From Shigella phage JK32, in the sequence record MK962753.1: a DNA stretch of 64,000 nt; one strand, given 5' to 3'. The position numbers were made by a program, and so were the translations under genes. The notes under the pieces are model-generated. The model was not told where the DNA came from and made no database searches. It saw only the letters and a list, made by a program, of their open reading frames with translations. Shown here in pieces: positions 2,547 to 64,000 of this stretch (its first letter is position 1; the number at the start of each line of letters is the position of its first letter).

Positions 2547-3203
2547 TTAAATGTTCGCGAGAATCGCGCTTTCAAATTCTTCTAATGTACCATTATTTAT
2601 GATAATGGTTTCACCGTCAATAGGCAAAATTCCTTTTTCGGTGGAGTGAGTCGATACAATACCAGTATCACGCTGAATATGCAACACCTTAGCACCCATA
2701 GCACGCACGAGAGCAATTTCAATAGGCTGACGCACATCAACCACTACAAAATAACCTTCTTCATTTTTGCGCTTCATAAACTCATTCACGAAGAGATTAC
2801 ACCAATAAAGCGGATTGATCAAGTTAACCATTATATCAGTACCGAGAGTGGTTAACATGAGACGAATAGACCAGACGTTATTATGTTTTTCGCCGATCTC
2901 ATTAACAACCTTGTAAATCTCAGCCAGACGATCACAAGTAAAGGAACTACCGCCATACTTCGAATCTAGCATAAGCAGACACTGAATAAACCACTTATGC
3001 GCGGTATAGGTATCAATACCTAGATCGGCTTCTCTGTCACGCCCTAACCCGTCAAAGTCAAGATAAGTCAGACCTAAGTCTGGTTGACATTCGCACAATA
3101 TTTCTTTGATCGGTGCTGCCAGTTGATAACTATGTCCATCAATGATTAACGCGGCAGTGTCTTTTCCTACTCGCTTTTTACCACAAAGTGCAATCAATTT
3201 CAT
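2547..3203 (-). CDS. 1: deoxynucleoside monophosphate kinase
   Basis: 218 aa; N-terminal P-loop-like MKLIALCGKKRVGKDT resembling T4 gp1; position. Confidence 0.65.
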   Translation of the reverse strand: MKLIALCGKKRVGKDTAALIIDGHSYQLAAPIKEILCECQPDLGLTYLDFDGLGRDREADLGIDTYTAHKWFIQCLLMLDSKYGGSSFTCDRLAEIYKVVNEIGEKHNNVWSIRLMLTTLGTDIMVNLINPLYWCNLFVNEFMKRKNEEGYFVVVDVRQPIEIALVRAMGAKVLHIQRDTGIVSTHSTEKGILPIDGETIIINNGTLEEFESAILANI

Positions 3204-3218
3204 TATATAAGCCTCTTA

Positions 3219-3809
3219 TTACTTTCTAAAAGCAGGGTGCATAGCTTTAATACCTTCCACTCGCTGACGATCCGCCGCCTGAATTGCAGGGCGAGGAACG
3301 ATCAGTTGACCATCACGTTCAATGCTCATTGTTTTAAATGGAAGAATTGCAGTACATACCAGAGATTCATGCATATCATCGGTGTATGTTAACTCAAGTT
3401 CCCCCAATTGTGAACACCAACAACCATAAAAGTTAAAGGTGCATACAATATTGCGGCGTTCATTGTCCATCATGTGAACTTGAACGGCTTCCGGCATTGA
3501 ATCCTTCCACGCAGTGGAGTTACCGTTATTGTAGTCTACTATAGAAAGCATCCATGTGTAAAGGTTTAGATAGCTTTCCAAATGCTCATCAACGATAAAC
3601 CGGACTACCAACGGGTCAAACTCTACATGACTAGACGGATAATCAGCAACCGCCAAACCATATTGACCAGCAACTTGCTTAGTCGGTGGAATGGTTATAG
3701 CCGGAAGTGTAACACCTTGACAGTTTAAAGTAAAGCCTTTTGTTAGTTGACCATCTGGAATGGCAATCTGCCAGTTGCTAGGGTTAGCATAGTTAAAGAG
3801 ATTAGACAT
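3219..3809 (-). CDS. 3: tail completion / sheath stabilizer protein
   Basis: 196 aa; placed between gene 1 and gene 2 as in T4. Confidence 0.5.
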   Translation of the reverse strand: MSNLFNYANPSNWQIAIPDGQLTKGFTLNCQGVTLPAITIPPTKQVAGQYGLAVADYPSSHVEFDPLVVRFIVDEHLESYLNLYTWMLSIVDYNNGNSTAWKDSMPEAVQVHMMDNERRNIVCTFNFYGCWCSQLGELELTYTDDMHESLVCTAILPFKTMSIERDGQLIVPRPAIQAADRQRVEGIKAMHPAFRK

Positions 3810-57199: not shown

Positions 57200-57717
57200 T
57201 GACTGATACTAAACCATCTCTAAAATTTGTTGTTCCTGTTAAAAATATTACCGTTAACGGGAAACATATCAAGATCCCTAAAATGGGGATCAAACAGCAC
57301 AGATTATTAAAAGATGTTCGTAGCTGTGAAGAGACTTTAAAAATTCTACTTGATTCCATTCACCCAGGACTAAATGCAGCCGAAGCAGAATATGTTATGC
57401 TTCACTTATGCTCTTTTAATGGCAAATGCCTAGAAGAAAAAGATGGTTTGCGATTGGATGATGTTTATATCTGTACAGAATCGGAGTTTGAATTTAATGG
57501 CGAGAAATTCAAGTTCACGCCTCCTATGCTCTCTTCTGAATATACACATGATGATGCAAATTTCCTAAGCAATCACTATCACGATCCTAGTGTAGACTTT
57601 CATAAATTCCCAGCGTTTATTATGAATTGGGCTACAGGATTAAGAAAAACCGTTGCCTTAGATACTCCAGAAGGTACTATCTATGGTGGCATTAACATAT
57701 TGGATCGCCTATCATGA
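57196..57717 (+). CDS. 28: baseplate hub distal protein
   Basis: 173 aa; synteny. Confidence 0.6.
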   Translation: MMTDTKPSLKFVVPVKNITVNGKHIKIPKMGIKQHRLLKDVRSCEETLKILLDSIHPGLNAAEAEYVMLHLCSFNGKCLEEKDGLRLDDVYICTESEFEFNGEKFKFTPPMLSSEYTHDDANFLSNHYHDPSVDFHKFPAFIMNWATGLRKTVALDTPEGTIYGGINILDRLS

Positions 57718-59393
57718 ATGACACATTAACATCATTTCGCGGAATGCGTAAAGACGCAGAAAATGATCCGCTTGATAAATTAGAAAAATTGGACAAACTA
57801 GATTCTATTGATAATCTTCAAGCTGCAAGCGAATTGGTAGCAGAGACAGTAGAACAAAAATCTAATGAAGTTATTGGAGCGGTGGAGGATAACACCGCCG
57901 CCAACGAATTAACGGCAGAAAACACACAATCAACTGCTGGTAATACTCAAAAAACCTATGAAGAATTGCAGAAGTTGAACAGCTTTTCTTCTCAGATGAA
58001 TGAGAAATTACGCGGTTTTGGTGTTATGATGGAACGTAGATTCAGCGTAGTTTCTAAGATCACCAGTGGTCTTGATGCAATTGAAAAGGCCATCAAGGAT
58101 GAGAAACAGCCGGAACAAACTATGCCATCACCGCAACCAGTTTTGCCGAGTGTACCGGAACAACAAAATAACGATAACTACCCTACGTTACCTAAGAAGC
58201 CTAAAGACGATAAGAAAAAGAAAGATAAGAACAGCGACCGTGACAATAATATGCAAATGCTAATAAAAGCGGTTCGCGGTGGATTTAAAGAGACTGTTGG
58301 TGTATCCAACAAGATATTCTCTATGCTGTTTAAAATGACCGTAACTGCATTGCTGGAAGTTGCCAAATGGGGAGCTATTCTTCTGGGGATCGTTGTTGCT
58401 ATTGATACTCTTATGATTCATTTTAGATACTGGAGCACGCAGTTTAACGAGAACTTTGGCGGGTTTATGAAGAAGGCCGGAGGATGGGGTACATCACTAA
58501 CAAGTATTTTAGCTAGTGTTGACGCGATTAAAGATTTTTGGGCTAAAAAACAATATGGTGATCTAGTTTGGGAAATTGTTAAAGGCATCGGTAAATCATT
58601 AAAAGATGCATTCTTCCAGTTAGATAAAATTGTCACTCAAGGCGTAGCGTCTGTATTGCGAACTATTCCTATGATGGGTGATGTTGCTGATACTATGGAA
58701 TATAACGCGCTAAAACAAGCTAAAGAGCATGGTGGATATAAACTTACACCAGAAGAAAATAAACTTTATCTTCGTAAGAAAAAAGAAGAAGATATGGAAA
58801 AAGGTAAACTTGCTAAAGCTAAATTAGCCGTTGAGAAATATAATCAGCCTTTGGGGATGCAAACAGAAATTTTGTTGTCGCCCGAAGAACAAAATGCTGT
58901 AGATAGATATGAAGAATTGAAGTCTGTGAGTGAGGAAAAATATTTGCGTAGTGGTGCTATTACTAGCGATGCAGAATCTGACTTAAAAAGAAATATTTCT
59001 ATGTTGGATTCGCTTAAGCCAAACTTACATGACAAACAGATTGCCGAACTTGATGCTAATGTAAATGAATATCGATCTTTGGTTAATGATGACTCATTGC
59101 TTTCTACTGATCGCAGAATGATTCAGGATCTGCTTAATCGTTATGACAAACTTCGTGCGGATAAAAACGCTAAGGTAACAGTAACCGCGCCTCCACCGGA
59201 TGAAACCGATACAGCAAAACAAGCAACGGCAATAGAACAGGGGCAATTACAGAATATCAGGAATGATAATTCTATTTCTAATACAGCCAACGTTGCAAAC
59301 ACGCAGATCTATAACAATAATAGAACGGTGCAGATAACACGGCCTCAAACTAGTACGCCTTCTCCCGGCCTATTACAGAAAGGAATAGTTTAA
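57714..59393 (+). CDS. 29: tail tape measure / baseplate hub protein
   Basis: 559 aa, helical, low-complexity; synteny. Confidence 0.65.
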   Translation: MNDTLTSFRGMRKDAENDPLDKLEKLDKLDSIDNLQAASELVAETVEQKSNEVIGAVEDNTAANELTAENTQSTAGNTQKTYEELQKLNSFSSQMNEKLRGFGVMMERRFSVVSKITSGLDAIEKAIKDEKQPEQTMPSPQPVLPSVPEQQNNDNYPTLPKKPKDDKKKKDKNSDRDNNMQMLIKAVRGGFKETVGVSNKIFSMLFKMTVTALLEVAKWGAILLGIVVAIDTLMIHFRYWSTQFNENFGGFMKKAGGWGTSLTSILASVDAIKDFWAKKQYGDLVWEIVKGIGKSLKDAFFQLDKIVTQGVASVLRTIPMMGDVADTMEYNALKQAKEHGGYKLTPEENKLYLRKKKEEDMEKGKLAKAKLAVEKYNQPLGMQTEILLSPEEQNAVDRYEELKSVSEEKYLRSGAITSDAESDLKRNISMLDSLKPNLHDKQIAELDANVNEYRSLVNDDSLLSTDRRMIQDLLNRYDKLRADKNAKVTVTAPPPDETDTAKQATAIEQGQLQNIRNDNSISNTANVANTQIYNNNRTVQITRPQTSTPSPGLLQKGIV

Positions 59394-59394
59394 T

Positions 59395-60441
59395 ATGAAA
59401 ATTAAAATTTTGGATGATGCTAATGACGCCTTAAAAAAAGGCGTCAAAGCGTCTGCTGGGTTTACTCAAAAACAAGACAAGTCAACTTTAACCGCTCAAT
59501 TTCCATCTGAACGAGCTAGCGGTAATGATTCGTCTGGTATATACATAAATGACCTTTATAGTAATGGCTTGTTGTTTACTGCCTATGATTATAGAGAACG
59601 TGTTACTAGTTCTCTTCGTGATTTTAGAAATGAGCACAGTACATTACGTGGATTTGGTGCGAATGGGAAAATAGGGTCAAAAGATTTTTATAAAACATCG
59701 TTTGACCGTGATGCTGTTGCTAATATCCTGCTTCCTCGTAGTCAATCAGATGTTGATGCGGTAAGTCACAAGTTTAATGATGTTGGTGAATCTCTCGTTA
59801 CTCGTGGTGGTGGTACTATTTCTGGTGCATTATCTGCTATGGCATCGACCGCAGTATTTGGTGGTTTGGAAAGTTTGACAGGTGGTTATCTTGCGGATAA
59901 AAACGAGCAGATCTATAATACCGCTCGTAGTATGTATGCTGGGGCAGATCCTAGAACTAAAAACTACGTCTGGCACTTAACCCCACGTAGTATTGAAGAC
60001 CTGCGAAATATCCTGATTATCTATGAAACGTTTGTAGAATTGTCTTATGGATCTAGTGGTATTTCCAGTACCGCAAAACAATTAAAAGCGGAAGTTGATG
60101 CATGGTATAAAAAGACAATTCTTTCTAAAACGGTTCCAGAAGGTGCTGATACAACGGGTACTGTATTTGAGGGAATAACTGACTTTTTGACAAACGTAAC
60201 CACTGTGTCGAATCCTACTATATGGATGGTCTCAAATTTCGGTAAGAGATCTGCTTATGAGGGACGTAATGACTCTTTCGGACCAGCGCAGATCACTAAC
60301 GTAAGACTTGATAAATCACCAGATGGTAAATTTGGTGGCCTGGCAATATCTCCTAACTTACCGAGTACCTTTGTTTTGGAAGTATCGTTTAGGGAGATTC
60401 TTACTCTTTCCCGTGGTACTGTATTTGGGAGTCAATTATAA
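59395..60441 (+). CDS. 48: baseplate-tail tube junction protein
   Basis: 348 aa; synteny. Confidence 0.65.
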   Translation: MKIKILDDANDALKKGVKASAGFTQKQDKSTLTAQFPSERASGNDSSGIYINDLYSNGLLFTAYDYRERVTSSLRDFRNEHSTLRGFGANGKIGSKDFYKTSFDRDAVANILLPRSQSDVDAVSHKFNDVGESLVTRGGGTISGALSAMASTAVFGGLESLTGGYLADKNEQIYNTARSMYAGADPRTKNYVWHLTPRSIEDLRNILIIYETFVELSYGSSGISSTAKQLKAEVDAWYKKTILSKTVPEGADTTGTVFEGITDFLTNVTTVSNPTIWMVSNFGKRSAYEGRNDSFGPAQITNVRLDKSPDGKFGGLAISPNLPSTFVLEVSFREILTLSRGTVFGSQL

Positions 60442-61370
60442 TGTTTGATTTAAATGATTTCAACGAACAAGCCGCTAATCTAGACTTTCAGCGATCTAAT
60501 CTATTTTCGGTGGCGTTTGCCACCGTTCCTAGTAGCAAGACACAGCAAATTCTAGAAAATTTTGGTGGTGCTATTCATGATATTATACCTGGTAAATTAA
60601 ATGATTATTTTGGTATTACAGAGGGTGATTATACCGATGCCGTAACAAATTTGGCTATACATGGAGTGCGTAGAGCCGTTACATCGTCCGGTGTCAAAAA
60701 GTATCTTTTAGGTGCAATGTCATCCCGCGTAGTTCAATCTCTTCTGGGGCAATTTGAAGTTGGTACATATGTCATGGATTGGTTCAATATGGCATATAAG
60801 ACAAGCGGTTTGATGGTATATGCTGTTAAAGTTCCAGAAAACCGATTGAGTTATGAAATGGACAGAAACCACAATGCGCCTAACATTAGAATTACTGGAC
60901 GTGATTATGACCCGTTGATTCTTAGCTTTAGAATGGACGCTAGCGCGTCTAATTACAGGGCGATGCAGGATTGGGTTAACTCAGTAGAAGACCCCGTTAC
61001 AGGGCTTCGTGCGCTTCCTGTTGACGTTGAAGCAGATATTCAGGTCAACTTACATAACCGAATGGGAGTTCCTCACACGATCATGATGTTTAATGGTTGT
61101 GTTCCTGTTGGTGTGAGTTCCCCTGAATTAAGCTATGAAAATAACAACGAAATCACAACATTCGATGTTACTTTTGCGTATAGGACTATGCAAACTGGTG
61201 CTGTAGGAGAGCAAGCCGCGCGAGAATGGATTGAGGATAAGGCAATAAACCTGATTCAAAATACTATTGGTGATGGTACATCTGGATCGTTGACCGCTGC
61301 TGGTAGTGCGTTATCTCGCCTACAGGGTGTTGGTGGTAGGATAGTTAATTCTATTACTAGGTTGTTTTAA
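60441..61370 (+). CDS. 54: baseplate-tail tube initiator protein
   Basis: 309 aa; synteny. Confidence 0.65.
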   Translation: MFDLNDFNEQAANLDFQRSNLFSVAFATVPSSKTQQILENFGGAIHDIIPGKLNDYFGITEGDYTDAVTNLAIHGVRRAVTSSGVKKYLLGAMSSRVVQSLLGQFEVGTYVMDWFNMAYKTSGLMVYAVKVPENRLSYEMDRNHNAPNIRITGRDYDPLILSFRMDASASNYRAMQDWVNSVEDPVTGLRALPVDVEADIQVNLHNRMGVPHTIMMFNGCVPVGVSSPELSYENNNEITTFDVTFAYRTMQTGAVGEQAAREWIEDKAINLIQNTIGDGTSGSLTAAGSALSRLQGVGGRIVNSITRLF

Positions 61371-61374
61371 TGTT

Positions 61375-61397
61375 AAAAGGGGCATTGCGCCCCTTTT
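61375..61397. terminator. bidirectional rho-independent terminator
   Basis: AAAAGGGG-CATTGCG-CCCCTTTT hairpin between convergent gene 54 and the lipoprotein gene. Confidence 0.6.
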
Positions 61398-61399
61398 AA

Positions 61400-61912
61400 T
61401 TAATTTAGTATATCTTCACACTGTTTACGCAGTTTATACCGGTATTCTTTAGAACTCAGCAATTGAACTTTTTCATAATCTCCAGACTCATATGCACTTG
61501 ACAGGTCGTCTTGATATGCTGCCTCTACCCCGATTCGACAAATGTCATATTTTCGTGCTTTCTTCAAGTCCAATTGTTCTCGCTCAAACTCTTTTCTTCT
61601 TTTCTCTAAATCTTCCTGATAGCTCTTATTTCTGCGATCTATCTTATCTTGAATCTCTGCGATTCTTTGTTGTGCTTCTTGTGGTAGTCCTATACGCGCT
61701 GCTGCCTCATCTTTTTTCTGTAGCATATCAATCACGCAATGTTCAGGGTCTTGATATACAAATTGCTTGACTTGCGAATGATTGTACCATTGAACACAAT
61801 ATTCTTCAACTTGCTGTATTGATGCTGTTGCGACTCGATAATCTTTTAACCCAGCGCACCCATTAAGCATAGCCACTAAAGCCGCAAGACCAATCAGTTT
61901 AATAATTTTCAT
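61400..61912 (-). CDS. putative lipoprotein
   Basis: 170 aa; signal peptide with lipobox LNGC; start overlaps the stop of the upstream ADP-ribosyltransferase gene. Confidence 0.5.
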   Translation of the reverse strand: MKIIKLIGLAALVAMLNGCAGLKDYRVATASIQQVEEYCVQWYNHSQVKQFVYQDPEHCVIDMLQKKDEAAARIGLPQEAQQRIAEIQDKIDRRNKSYQEDLEKRRKEFEREQLDLKKARKYDICRIGVEAAYQDDLSSAYESGDYEKVQLLSSKEYRYKLRKQCEDILN

Positions 61913-62742
61913 TTAGTCACCTCACCGAAAATTGTAAATTGTCTACGATTCTCATCGCCGAAGGATTCTACTACGTCGTTTACCTTTATGCAAGTCCCGC
62001 GCGGTAAAATTACTTCACATTCGCAAGGATTCCACGCAATCGACCCAACAACAAAACCTTTATGATCTTTTACATCAATTACCCATGATACATTACAAGA
62101 ATGTTGCATCTTTCCGGTCATCGATTCATATCGATTCTCACAATAAAGGCTAGTGCTGTTTGAAAGCCATCCTCCAAAAATGATCGGTGTCATGCTGGTC
62201 GACACAAAGTTTTTAAAGGTAAATTCCTTATCTTCAATAATACGCTCTATTGTTTGAATGTCAAGATGTTGACCACGATAAAGAGTACCGTTTAACTTTT
62301 CGGTTTTATCCATGACACAATCCATCAAATCGACAATCTCTGATATCTCGTCGGTCATGTCTTCCTCGCCTAAGAGAGCACCATTTACCCATTCGTATTG
62401 TTCAGACACATAATCACAGATTGCATTATATTCTGCTGGGGTTATGTTGTTATGTTTGTAATATTTGAATACATTATCTCCAAAATCTTCGGAGTGTACT
62501 TCATACATCACATTAATGATTTTCTTGACAAATCCATAATCTTGTGTCTCTCGCTCAAGGAAGCGGATAATCTTCACATAATCATCAAAGTTAATCTGAT
62601 CGCTGATCATCTCAGTGATCATGTAACCATTAATCCCCTCAATGCCATATGTTTCGATGTAATTATCCATACGTTCCATCATTGATTCGCGTGAATCTTC
62701 TGAAAGACGAAAATCCTGTAATTGTTTGAACATTTTGAACAT
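61909..62742 (-). CDS. mono-ADP-ribosyltransferase (R-S-E type, Alt/Mod-like), paralog 1
   Basis: 277 aa; motifs LYRGQ, FVSTSM, ECEVILPRG. Confidence 0.6.
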   Translation of the reverse strand: MFKMFKQLQDFRLSEDSRESMMERMDNYIETYGIEGINGYMITEMISDQINFDDYVKIIRFLERETQDYGFVKKIINVMYEVHSEDFGDNVFKYYKHNNITPAEYNAICDYVSEQYEWVNGALLGEEDMTDEISEIVDLMDCVMDKTEKLNGTLYRGQHLDIQTIERIIEDKEFTFKNFVSTSMTPIIFGGWLSNSTSLYCENRYESMTGKMQHSCNVSWVIDVKDHKGFVVGSIAWNPCECEVILPRGTCIKVNDVVESFGDENRRQFTIFGEVTK

Positions 62743-62755
62743 TTTAAACCTCCCA

Positions 62756-62794
62756 TATAACAGAAAACGGGGCTAGTATAAAACTAGTCCCCGT
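62756..62794 (-). terminator. hairpin terminator / attenuator
   Basis: AACGGGGCTAG...CTAGTCCCCGTT hairpin with moderate T-run on minus strand. Confidence 0.4.
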
Positions 62795-62820
62795 TTGAGT
62801 CAACCATTATTTCTTAAAAA

Positions 62821-63939
62821 TTACATTTTAAATTTATCTGGCATTGCGTCTACAGATACCAGATCAGCGATAAGCTGACGTAGAGTTGCCTTATCTGCTT
62901 TCTTACGTTCGGTTTTAGCTTCGGTAATAAAGCTGGAGAAAGACAGGTCAGAAGCAGGTTTAACAACACCTTCACGGATGAATGCATCACCGTCCGCGAT
63001 CATCTCGCCAGATTCTTGTAATGCTGCCAGTTCATTTTTGTTCATAATATGTGCCTCAATGTAATAAGTTTCTTGTGAATCCGTCGATGCCGTAGCACGA
63101 GTTACCGTATCAAAGGATAACACAACACCGCGAGGAAGTAAAATCTCGCATTCTTTGTAAGCAAATGCTTTGTTACCTACTGGCAATACGGGGATGTTTT
63201 CCGCGCCAGCAATGGAGAAAGCAACATTAGCGCCACCTTCACCGCGAGATCCAGCCATAGAATCTACACCAGCAACGGCACTAGCCACGTTTGCATTCCA
63301 GCCGCCAAAAATGTTAGGTGCAAGGGAAGTGCTCACATAGTTTTTAAAGTAAAACGCTTTTTGCTTACGTGCAGTTTCCCACATTTGCGACCGGAAGTCC
63401 ATACCACGATACAGAATAGTACCAGGATCAAGTTTAACGCCATAGTTGGAGAAGGCATTATCCAGTGCATCGCACATCTTGACCAATTCTTCTGGATCTG
63501 CGATGCCTTCAAACTCTTCCAGCTTACGGTCGGTTAGGAAGTTGTTCATATTGATGTATGCTGCATCGGCATATTCGCTCAACACAAAACCTTCCGCGCC
63601 CGGCAGATCAAGATCAATATCTGCCATCATTTCACCCATGTTGCTAGCAATTGCTTCAAACATACCGGAAGCAACATTACGTAGGGCATCGGTTTTAATC
63701 TGTGTGATGTGACTACGCAGCATTTCAGCTTTTACATCTGCTGGCATAGACTGGTCTACTCGATCCATTGCCAGGGCGGTGATCTTGTTTTCGAATACTT
63801 CCTCGCTCATGATTTCTTTTAAGCGTTTGATTGATGCTGCGATAACTTCCGCAGACAACGGATCATATTGATCCTGAACTTTTACCAGTTCGCTTACTGC
63901 ATATTTTGCATCGGCTTCGCTTTCAAAAATAGTACGCAT
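62821..63939 (-). CDS. mono-ADP-ribosyltransferase (R-S-E type, Alt/Mod-like), paralog 2
   Basis: 372 aa; motifs LYRGMDF, YVSTSLAP, KECEILLPRG; C-terminal domain alignable with paralog 1. Confidence 0.6.
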   Translation of the reverse strand: MRTIFESEADAKYAVSELVKVQDQYDPLSAEVIAASIKRLKEIMSEEVFENKITALAMDRVDQSMPADVKAEMLRSHITQIKTDALRNVASGMFEAIASNMGEMMADIDLDLPGAEGFVLSEYADAAYINMNNFLTDRKLEEFEGIADPEELVKMCDALDNAFSNYGVKLDPGTILYRGMDFRSQMWETARKQKAFYFKNYVSTSLAPNIFGGWNANVASAVAGVDSMAGSRGEGGANVAFSIAGAENIPVLPVGNKAFAYKECEILLPRGVVLSFDTVTRATASTDSQETYYIEAHIMNKNELAALQESGEMIADGDAFIREGVVKPASDLSFSSFITEAKTERKKADKATLRQLIADLVSVDAMPDKFKM

Positions 63940-64000
63940 GAAACCATAGCGAGTGATAATATCACTTGTCCAGTCATTCAGAGAACGAGCGGTTGAACGT

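Follow-up and report, generated by a model that had tools for sequence, protein, structure and literature searches.

The end of a 64,000-nucleotide stretch of DNA from Shigella phage JK32 (sequence record MK962753.1; the whole stretch is called the window here) carries two genes for ADP-ribosyltransferases (ARTs) and one for a lipoprotein, all on the minus strand. The three open reading frames (ORFs; 61400-61912, 61909-62742 and 62821-63939+) are as described in an earlier reading of the letters alone (the original prediction), which took them for two short paralogous ART genes co-transcribed with a lipoprotein gene. Our analysis indicates that the locus is very probably the alt region of a Krischvirus coliphage, organized in two transcription units: a canonical alt, and a short ART gene followed by the lipoprotein gene. 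The principal features, in the order in which the minus strand is read, are as follows.

62821..64000, minus strand: alt, 3' 57% of the gene (393 codons plus stop), assigned by its open frame, collinearity, PF03496 and PHROG 802.
62775..62803, minus strand: candidate promoter of sigma-70 / T4-early type, TTGACT-17-TATACT, with 10/12 consensus matches.
62765..62796, minus strand: terminator-like hairpin after alt, AAACGGGGACUAG / CUAGCCCCGUUU, with a minimum free energy of -20.6 kcal/mol and z = -4.25.
~62764-62756, minus strand: T-run UUUUCUGUU after the alt hairpin.
61909..62742, minus strand: short ART, 277 amino acids, assigned by PF03496, PHROG 15144, alignment, an AlphaFold2 (AF2) model searched with Foldseek, and the RB49 annotation.
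61400..61912, minus strand: lipoprotein precursor, 170 amino acids, assigned by alignments and PHROG 16112 (function unknown).
61376..61397, no strand assigned: bidirectional intrinsic terminator AAAAGGGGCGCAATGCCCCTTTT, separating the lipoprotein gene from gene 54, which converges on it.
60441..61370, plus strand: gene 54 (baseplate-tail tube junction), assigned by Pfam PF06841, PHROG 45 and a gene order shared with RB49 and T4.

The last 3 kb of the window matched 58 phage records, all of them RB49-like (genus Krischvirus, Straboviridae), the closest being phage Whisky (97% DNA identity, 100% query coverage). The plus-strand genes just upstream are those of the T4-type proteins gp29 (tape measure/hub), gp48 and gp54, as identified with Pfam and PHROG. 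Because gene 54 is the convergent neighbor and the arrangement is syntenic with the RB49 and T4 maps, the locus corresponds to the '54 / alt' junction of T4-type phages, with one additional operon, that of the short ART and the lipoprotein, inserted in the order between alt and gene 54.

Is the first of the two ART ORFs a gene in its own right? The ORF list gave it 372 amino acids, counted from an internal ATG at 63939; ORFs at the edge of a stretch may be truncated genes. Translation of 62821-63999 meets no stop 5' of this Met, the frame being open to base 63999: the codons before the internal Met read RSTARSLNDWTSDIITRYGF-M-RTIF..., open to the final codon of the window, and no Shine-Dalgarno sequence or ribosome-binding site lies ahead of the Met. 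The ORF 62821-64000 is collinear with residues ~291-683 of the 683-residue Alt of Whisky and RB49, from the former of which it differs at two positions over the ~393 residues aligned (by inspection). The annotated length of alt is 2052 nt in RB49, Whisky, AV108 and Skers, and ~870 nt of the gene are expected past position 64000. Because the reading frame runs off the end of the window and is collinear with a 683-residue Alt, the 372-residue ORF is a window-edge artifact, and the second short paralog of the original prediction falls away as a gene. The single 682-residue alt with which that prediction contrasted the locus is indeed what T4 has, but it has not been replaced here: this phage appears to have an ordinary full-length alt (~57% of it inside the window) and, besides it, a single additional short ART.

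The portion of alt in the window contains the motifs LYRGMDF, YVSTSLAP and KECEILLPRG, that is, the catalytic R, the S-T-S and the E-x-E (here ECE) of such enzymes. It matches PF03496 above the gathering score (E 3.5e-9) and PHROG 802 with E 5.9e-90 over profile positions 319-674 of 674, and the complete Alt of Whisky is 27% identical to T4 Alt from residue 31 to 681 (E 1e-60). Like its T4 counterpart the gene lies on the strand opposite to gene 54 and on the gene 54 side. It is very probably the ortholog of T4 alt, of the same length in the relatives (683 residues against 682 in T4), with the R / S-T-S / E-x-E core in common and a shared C-terminal tail ending in (M/L)P-x-KF; it differs in its surroundings, since the Krischvirus DNA ligase gene (gene 30) is not immediately upstream. 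By homology with T4 Alt, the product would be an arginine-specific mono-ADP-ribosyltransferase that is placed in the head core, has its N-terminus cut by the prohead protease and is injected along with the DNA. T4 gpAlt is located in the prohead core, where gp21 removes a small N-terminal peptide (PMC9958956); no Krischvirus virion proteome was found in our literature searches.

The short ART gene has the following internal and adjoining features.

62749-62754, minus strand: Shine-Dalgarno sequence GGGAGG.
62725-62742, minus strand: 9-nt tandem duplication, two copies of ATGTTCAAA at the start of the gene, giving MFKMFK.
62275-62277, minus strand: R156, catalytic Arg.
62194-62202, minus strand: S181-T182-S183, S-T-S motif.
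62014-62022, minus strand: E241-C-E243, E-x-E motif.

Its motifs read LYRGQ, FVSTSM and ECEVILPRG, and R156, S181-T182-S183 and E241-x-E243 do not vary across eight aligned sequences with identities down to 25%; the same holds for Y111 and N120, which lie further upstream, where the protein aligns with the N-terminal helices of Tre1 and Vis. The motifs quoted for both ORFs in the original prediction thus survive careful alignment, and the profile search against ART families that it proposed as a check gave PF03496 and Alt-like PHROG matches for both, well beyond what chance would produce: for the short ART, 59.0 bits to ADPrib_exo_Tox (PF03496; cut-off 23.4, E 5.2e-16) and E 4.5e-195 to PHROG 15144. 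Sequence comparison with the PDB gave weak matches only (Tre1, SpvB and Vis, E 0.06-0.7), so that a clear fold assignment required a fold search. In that search the AF2 model (predicted local distance difference test score, pLDDT, 78) matched 134 PDB chains at E<=0.001, among them Vis, C3bot, Certhrax, iota Ia, CDTa and VIP2 with E values of 1e-9 to 1e-8; the probability was 1.00 for the first five of these, which identifies the ART fold.

The two ARTs are paralogs of the Alt lineage, as had been proposed: BLAST gives 37% identity over a 109-residue catalytic core (E 1e-16). The short protein covers positions 332-602 of the 674 in the Alt profile, equivalent to residues 413-593 of T4 Alt, and lacks both the N-terminal ~320 residues of Alt and its C-terminal tail of ~75 residues. 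The further proposal that divergent N-termini direct the two enzymes to different targets was only an inference; the short ART corresponds to Alt residues ~330-600. It is the ortholog of RB49p183 (274 residues; 97% identity, same position, same downstream overlap), which is annotated as 'ADP-ribosyltransferase, similar to C-terminal part of T4 Alt protein'. The difference in length is that of the duplication: ATGTTCAAA is single-copy in RB49, Whisky, AV108 and Skers, giving 274 residues. A word-indexed homolog search with the short ART returned six proteins, and many phage records give two to three matches to it as a query. RB49ORF183c, 44RRORF188c and T4 alt.-1/alt.-2 were listed as paralogous alt duplications by Nolan et al. 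in 2006 (PMC1524935). The short ART is therefore already known and ordinary for T4-like phages, its paralogy having been published in that year.

What separates it from alt? The spacer between the two genes reads AAACGGGGACUAG-UUUUAUA-CUAGCCCCGUUU, then UUUUCUGUU. A bulged base hid this terminator from a scan for consensus terminators and it was detected by RNA folding; the hairpin is retained, with compensatory changes in the stem, in the distant relatives L008, L010 and L006. The -10 box of the candidate promoter lies within the loop and 3' arm of the hairpin, with an AT-rich stretch upstream, and TTGAC(A/T) stands at the same place in L006, L008, L009 and L010. The hypothetical early promoters annotated in RB49 share these motifs (TTGACA/TTGACT ... 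TATAAT/TATACT). The alt terminator and the candidate promoter of the next operon overlap within ~40 nt, a layout conserved in distant relatives. Transcripts arriving from alt would terminate at the hairpin and T-run, and those from the embedded promoter, lacking the 5' arm of the hairpin, would escape termination.

The T4-type late promoter TATAAATA is absent from the minus strand of the whole window. Its exact matches (9/9) are all on the plus strand, which fits a window made up mostly of rightward-transcribed late structural genes. In Whisky the region upstream of alt (L002 8880-8935) contains a terminator hairpin of its own, GGGGCGTTAAGCCCC, with a T-run, and alt is also preceded there by the late-promoter-like CATAAATA (7/8 consensus); these signals are what would be expected if alt were a late gene under separate control. 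Co-transcription, which the original prediction extended to all three genes, is at best a plausible reading for the short ART gene together with the lipoprotein gene, and is not plausible for alt, which is set apart by the hairpin and T-run.

Two other accounts of the ART genes have to be weighed against this arrangement. According to one, two separate short ART genes (372 and 277 residues) stand here where T4 has its 682-residue alt, and a single transcript spans them and the lipoprotein gene. The ATG at 63939 in the ORF listing and the R-S-E motifs in both ORFs speak for it, but it is next to impossible to reconcile with a frame that stays open past that ATG to the window's end and has no Shine-Dalgarno sequence there, with near-identity and collinearity to the 3' part of a 683-residue alt annotated at 2052 nt in four phages, and with a stable hairpin and T-run between alt and the short gene. 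The other account accepts the short gene and makes its product a second Alt, packaged in the virion and injected. T4 prohead protease sites have the form L/I-x-E, and the short ART has L-S-E at residues 13-15; read-through of late alt transcripts could also supply the protein late. An L-x-E within the first 20 residues is, however, often expected by chance, the entire N-terminal part of Alt (~320 residues) is missing, and the gene, which has no late promoter of its own, follows a terminator and a promoter of early type. We consider packaging of the short ART very unlikely and retain the division into a canonical alt unit and a short ART-lipoprotein unit.

The lipoprotein gene begins within the end of the short ART gene, the stop codon of the one and the start codon of the other overlapping as ATGA at 61909-61912, just as had been noted from the sequence; the lipoprotein's GAGG Shine-Dalgarno sequence falls within the last part of the short ART gene. 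Two elements mark its N-terminus.

61859-61912, minus strand: signal peptide MKIIKLIGLAALVAMLNG.
61856-61858, minus strand: lipobox Cys19, followed by Ala at +2.

The n- and h-regions of MKIIKLIGLAALVAMLNG-C19, the Gly at -1 and the Cys all fit the lipobox pattern, and the Asn at -2 falls outside it. The LNGC lipobox noted in the original prediction is present, after a signal peptide and with an invariant Cys. Across 12 family members, down to 19% identity, ten columns are invariant; G18 is one of them, and five are Cys (C19, C39, C59, C125 and C165). The family lipoboxes are L-T-G-C in most members and L-N-G-C or L-F-G-C in some. The homolog in phage W115, for which LipoP was among the annotation tools used, is annotated as 'putative lipoprotein', and that of KFS-EC is labeled 'Lipoprotein' in UniProt. 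We take the ORF to encode a real lipoprotein, with predicted lipidation at the invariant Cys. The set of invariant Cys probably corresponds to one lipidated Cys plus two periplasmic disulfides. The residue that follows the lipobox Cys governs lipoprotein sorting (the +2 rule), and the Ala at this position suggests sorting to the outer membrane. In the AF2 model (pLDDT 84) the protein is all-helical, with a central helix of 63 residues.

The family is tiny. Among 50,697 phage records the lipoprotein was found solely in 58 Krischvirus genomes, and 1.84 billion cluster representatives yielded ten that matched, one of them spurious (the repeat protein P0023). A word-indexed search gave nine proteins, to which an exhaustive profile search added about eight real, more distant relatives. 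It is a phage-only family of about ten clusters at 50% identity. Pfam, NCBIfam and PHROG assigned it no function, the sub-threshold matches being to DUF4337, Lpp/OprI and the signal-peptide region of AlgK.

In every lineage examined the lipoprotein gene follows the short ART gene. The order alt, short ART (264-282 residues), lipoprotein, convergent gp54 recurs in five contigs (L006-L011) that represent four other divergent lineages, whose lipoproteins are 22-33% identical to that of the window. The ART and lipoprotein genes overlap by 4 nt in one of these lineages and by 8 nt in another, and are 1 nt apart in a third. In the fourth (L010/L011) the genes as called are 11 nt apart, and would overlap by 1 nt only if the lipoprotein started at an upstream ATG that we infer from the better signal peptide it gives.

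Within Krischvirus the pair is conserved very unevenly. Compared with RB49, AV108 and Skers, alt and the short ART gene are 94-100% identical at the DNA level. From ~61880, directly past the part that encodes the signal peptide, identity falls to 30-60%, and this low level continues over the lipoprotein gene as far as the 3' end of gene 54; for the lipoprotein gene itself the fall is from ~97% to 30-50%. The short ART of the window is accordingly 97%, 97% and 96% identical to those of RB49, AV108 and Skers, and its lipoprotein 29%, 49% and 32%. Lipoprotein alleles fall into three classes, at 96%, ~48% and ~29% identity. Two signal-peptide variants, …ALVAMLNGC and …AAFMLTGC, each pair with all three types of mature domain. 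Since all six combinations exist (represented by the window, Whisky, AV108, P0005, Skers and RB49), repeated recombination at the lipobox junction is indicated, and the mature domain appears to be a recombining, hypervariable cassette. The window's own lipoprotein gene is chimeric with respect to Whisky, joining an AV108/Skers-type signal peptide to a Whisky-type mature part.

How might the two products of this operon act? We propose that the short ART, which retains the helical pre-domain together with the complete R / S-T-S / E-x-E core, is not packaged but synthesized in the cytoplasm early in infection, with a timing akin to that of T4 ModA/ModB though the enzyme is Alt-derived, and that it ADP-ribosylates arginines of host proteins in an NAD-dependent reaction. 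The lipoprotein would be exported, lipidated at Cys19, probably sorted to the outer membrane and probably stapled by two disulfides, and would work in the envelope independently of the chemistry of the short ART. The two genes would be adjacent through a shared early promoter and not through neutralization of one product by the other, and no evidence ties the lipoprotein functionally to the short ART. The likeliest role for the lipoprotein would be that of an early-made exclusion or envelope-protection factor, directed against incoming phage or an envelope-acting defense. We suggest this role with low confidence; superinfection exclusion, which the original prediction had raised, or another envelope role is plausible. 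The fullest form of the idea is that the short ART and lipoprotein make up a conserved early module in a clade of T4-like phages, in which the lipoprotein, disulfide-stapled and in the outer membrane, is an unrecognized kind of envelope exclusion or anti-defense factor, a stand-in for Imm and Sp of T4 that is swapped at the signal-peptide/lipobox junction; in that form it is unlikely. No homologs of the T4 proteins Imm and Sp were found by tblastn in a composite genome made of RB49 pieces (L013, L001 and L017) and the window, the best match to Sp (E 0.05) lying within the coordinates of gene 41; with proteins as small as these such a negative carries little weight.

Several observations weigh against this reading of the locus. 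The candidate promoter is a consensus match only, not proof of function, and read-through from alt into the short ART gene may occur. L-N-G-C departs from the classical lipobox [LVI][ASTVI][GAS]C, and most of the family has L-T-G-C. Neither sequence nor fold searches lend support to any function for the lipoprotein: the best PDB match of the model had an E value of 1.9, and BFVD returned only its own family. Literature searches on RB49p182/p183 for data on function, the transcriptome or the virion proteome turned up Nolan et al. 2006 alone, and expression, packaging or activity data for the Krischvirus genes of the alt locus were not found there. Krischvirus also encodes a Mod-type ART, RB49p014, which follows srd in RB49. 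The idea that the short ART simply replaces a missing ModA/ModB was rejected in view of this gene, and the total of ARTs in Krischvirus is three, the same as in T4. The gp38 adhesin allele gives no guide to the lipoprotein allele, and this speaks against simple masking of the receptor that the phage itself uses: lipoprotein alleles of types 2 and 3 each occur with both the ~97% and the ~82% class of gp38, and co-variation of the two was rejected because the allele classes assort independently among Krischvirus genomes. With the gp29 allele the lipoprotein allele co-varies only partly. Among phages with a type-2 lipoprotein, AV108 and PTE-Eco09 carry the 75% gp29 allele and the other four the RB49-type 53% allele, and what co-variation remains could reflect physical linkage.

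If the lipoprotein is not an exclusion or envelope-protection factor of this general sort, what else could it be? Were it a receptor-masking factor of the kind represented by T5 Llp or T1/phi80 Cor, it would block the receptor of the phage's own adhesin. A probable outer-membrane lipoprotein behind an early-type promoter would suit this role, as would a hypervariable, recombining gene of the sort expected at the phage-host or phage-phage interface, and the RB49-plus-window composite contains no T4 Imm or Sp homolog detectable by tblastn. We nevertheless regard masking as quite unlikely: the allele class of the lipoprotein is independent of that of gp38 (an indirect test of adhesin matching), the protein resembles nothing characterized in sequence or fold, and its mature part of 150 residues, helical and coiled-coil-like with a helix of 63 residues, seems larger than Llp or Cor, both of which we take to be smaller proteins.

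A part in lysis or envelope structure, whether o-spanin-like or Lpp-like, is highly improbable. The long helix of a lipoprotein is compatible with it, and the NCBIfam Lpp/OprI alanine-zipper profile is matched over its full 90 positions (E 2.5e-4), but the score of 21.5 bits is below the cut-off of 43 and is partly driven by the signal peptide. Typical o-spanins are small and proline-rich, a description that this protein does not fit. Nor is its gene embedded in or next to an i-spanin gene, and an early-type promoter is unsuited to a lysis gene. An outer-membrane spanin of the Rz1 / PseT.2 type was rejected on these grounds, the neighbors being an ART gene and gene 54 and the spanins lying elsewhere: the Krischvirus spanin pair pseT.2/pseT.3 is at its canonical place, and Rz/Rz1 are reported as core genes (PMC10194099).

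The original prediction also entertained a protective factor. One form of this would be an immunity protein or antidote to the short ART, the two forming a toxin-immunity pair like Tre1-Tri1. The genes are indeed adjacent and translationally overlapped in the lineages examined (in L010/L011 only with the inferred start, and with one 1-nt gap), and the nearest solved relatives of the ART include Tre1, a type VI secretion system effector that has an immunity partner. Such partners would share a compartment and co-evolve. Here the ART has no export signal and the lipoprotein is exported, with four invariant Cys beyond its signal peptide, as is typical of oxidized periplasmic proteins, which should place the two in different compartments; ARTs that are 96-97% identical stand beside lipoproteins of 29-49% identity, the opposite of what co-evolving partners would give; and other T4-like phages have two or three alt copies without such a lipoprotein. 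An antidote is hardly credible on this evidence, and an envelope role separate from the ART remains the reading that we prefer.

Tandem copies or remnants of alt are common in T4-like phages, and the short ART resembles T4 alt.-1/alt.-2, 44RR ORF187c/188c and the copies in WG01 and Tequatrovirus in being an alt duplication immediately downstream of alt, between alt and gene 54. T4 alt.-1/alt.-2 derive from the first part of alt and have degenerated to remnants (the T4 record describes them as an old duplication of that part), and the copies in WG01 (three) and in some Tequatrovirus (two) are full-length; the short ART has the catalytic part only, all catalytic residues intact, and its own candidate promoter. 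With T4 ModA/ModB it would share small size (200-280 residues), the R-S-E motifs and apparently early expression of sigma-70 type after infection. It is nonetheless Alt-derived (PHROG 802 and 15144) and not a member of the Mod group; PF03496 is reached neither by T4 ModA/ModB nor by the RB49 Mod homolog. The fold and active-site motifs are those of the C2/C3-like toxins (Vis, C3bot, Certhrax, iota Ia, CDTa, VIP2, SpvB and Tre1), in which an E-x-E in the ADP-ribosylating turn-turn (ARTT) motif predicts arginine specificity. Identity to these is only 12-20%, and the short ART is an intracellular phage enzyme without a translocation domain. The likeness of the lipoprotein to T5 Llp, T1/phi80 Cor and T4 Sp/Imm would be one of functional analogy only, as an early exported phage protein that acts on the envelope; it has no sequence or structure similarity to them and is helical, seemingly larger, and has two putative disulfides.

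The plus-strand genes from that of gp29 to gene 54 are mosaic as well. The gene for gp29, the tape measure/hub, is intact.

57714-59393, plus strand: gp29 tape measure/hub, 559 amino acids.

The window phage and Whisky have a rare gp29 allele in common (98%), which is 74-75% identical to those of AV108 and PTE-Eco09 and ~53% identical to that of every other Krischvirus (RB49 type), whereas the nearby alt and short ART are 96-100% identical. The proteins gp48 and gp54 are 75% and 87% identical to those of RB49. A patch of gene 48 (59600-59720, plus strand) has a DNA identity of 0.43-0.48 to RB49, AV108 and Skers between flanks of 0.7-0.97, and stays at 0.98-0.99 to Whisky; it resembles a small hypervariable segment in gp48. 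In the Whisky record (L002 1716-3394) gp29 is given as two ORFs (1716-2828 and 2858-3394), and in tblastn, too, it is covered only by two separate matches; this split is probably a frameshift or a sequencing error in the record.

As regards the ARTs, then, the analysis re-finds an annotated alt and a published short paralog and corrects a misreading at the window edge. Its modest value lies in the lipoprotein, which is real, uncharacterized and of evolutionary interest. It belongs to a phage-only family, is coupled to the short ART, lies behind an early-type promoter and is exchanged as a cassette between near-identical phages, and genes with such a signature are often exclusion or counter-defense factors. 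Krischvirus phages are used in phage-therapy collections, and if the lipoprotein is indeed an exclusion factor, exclusion between the members of a cocktail would matter.

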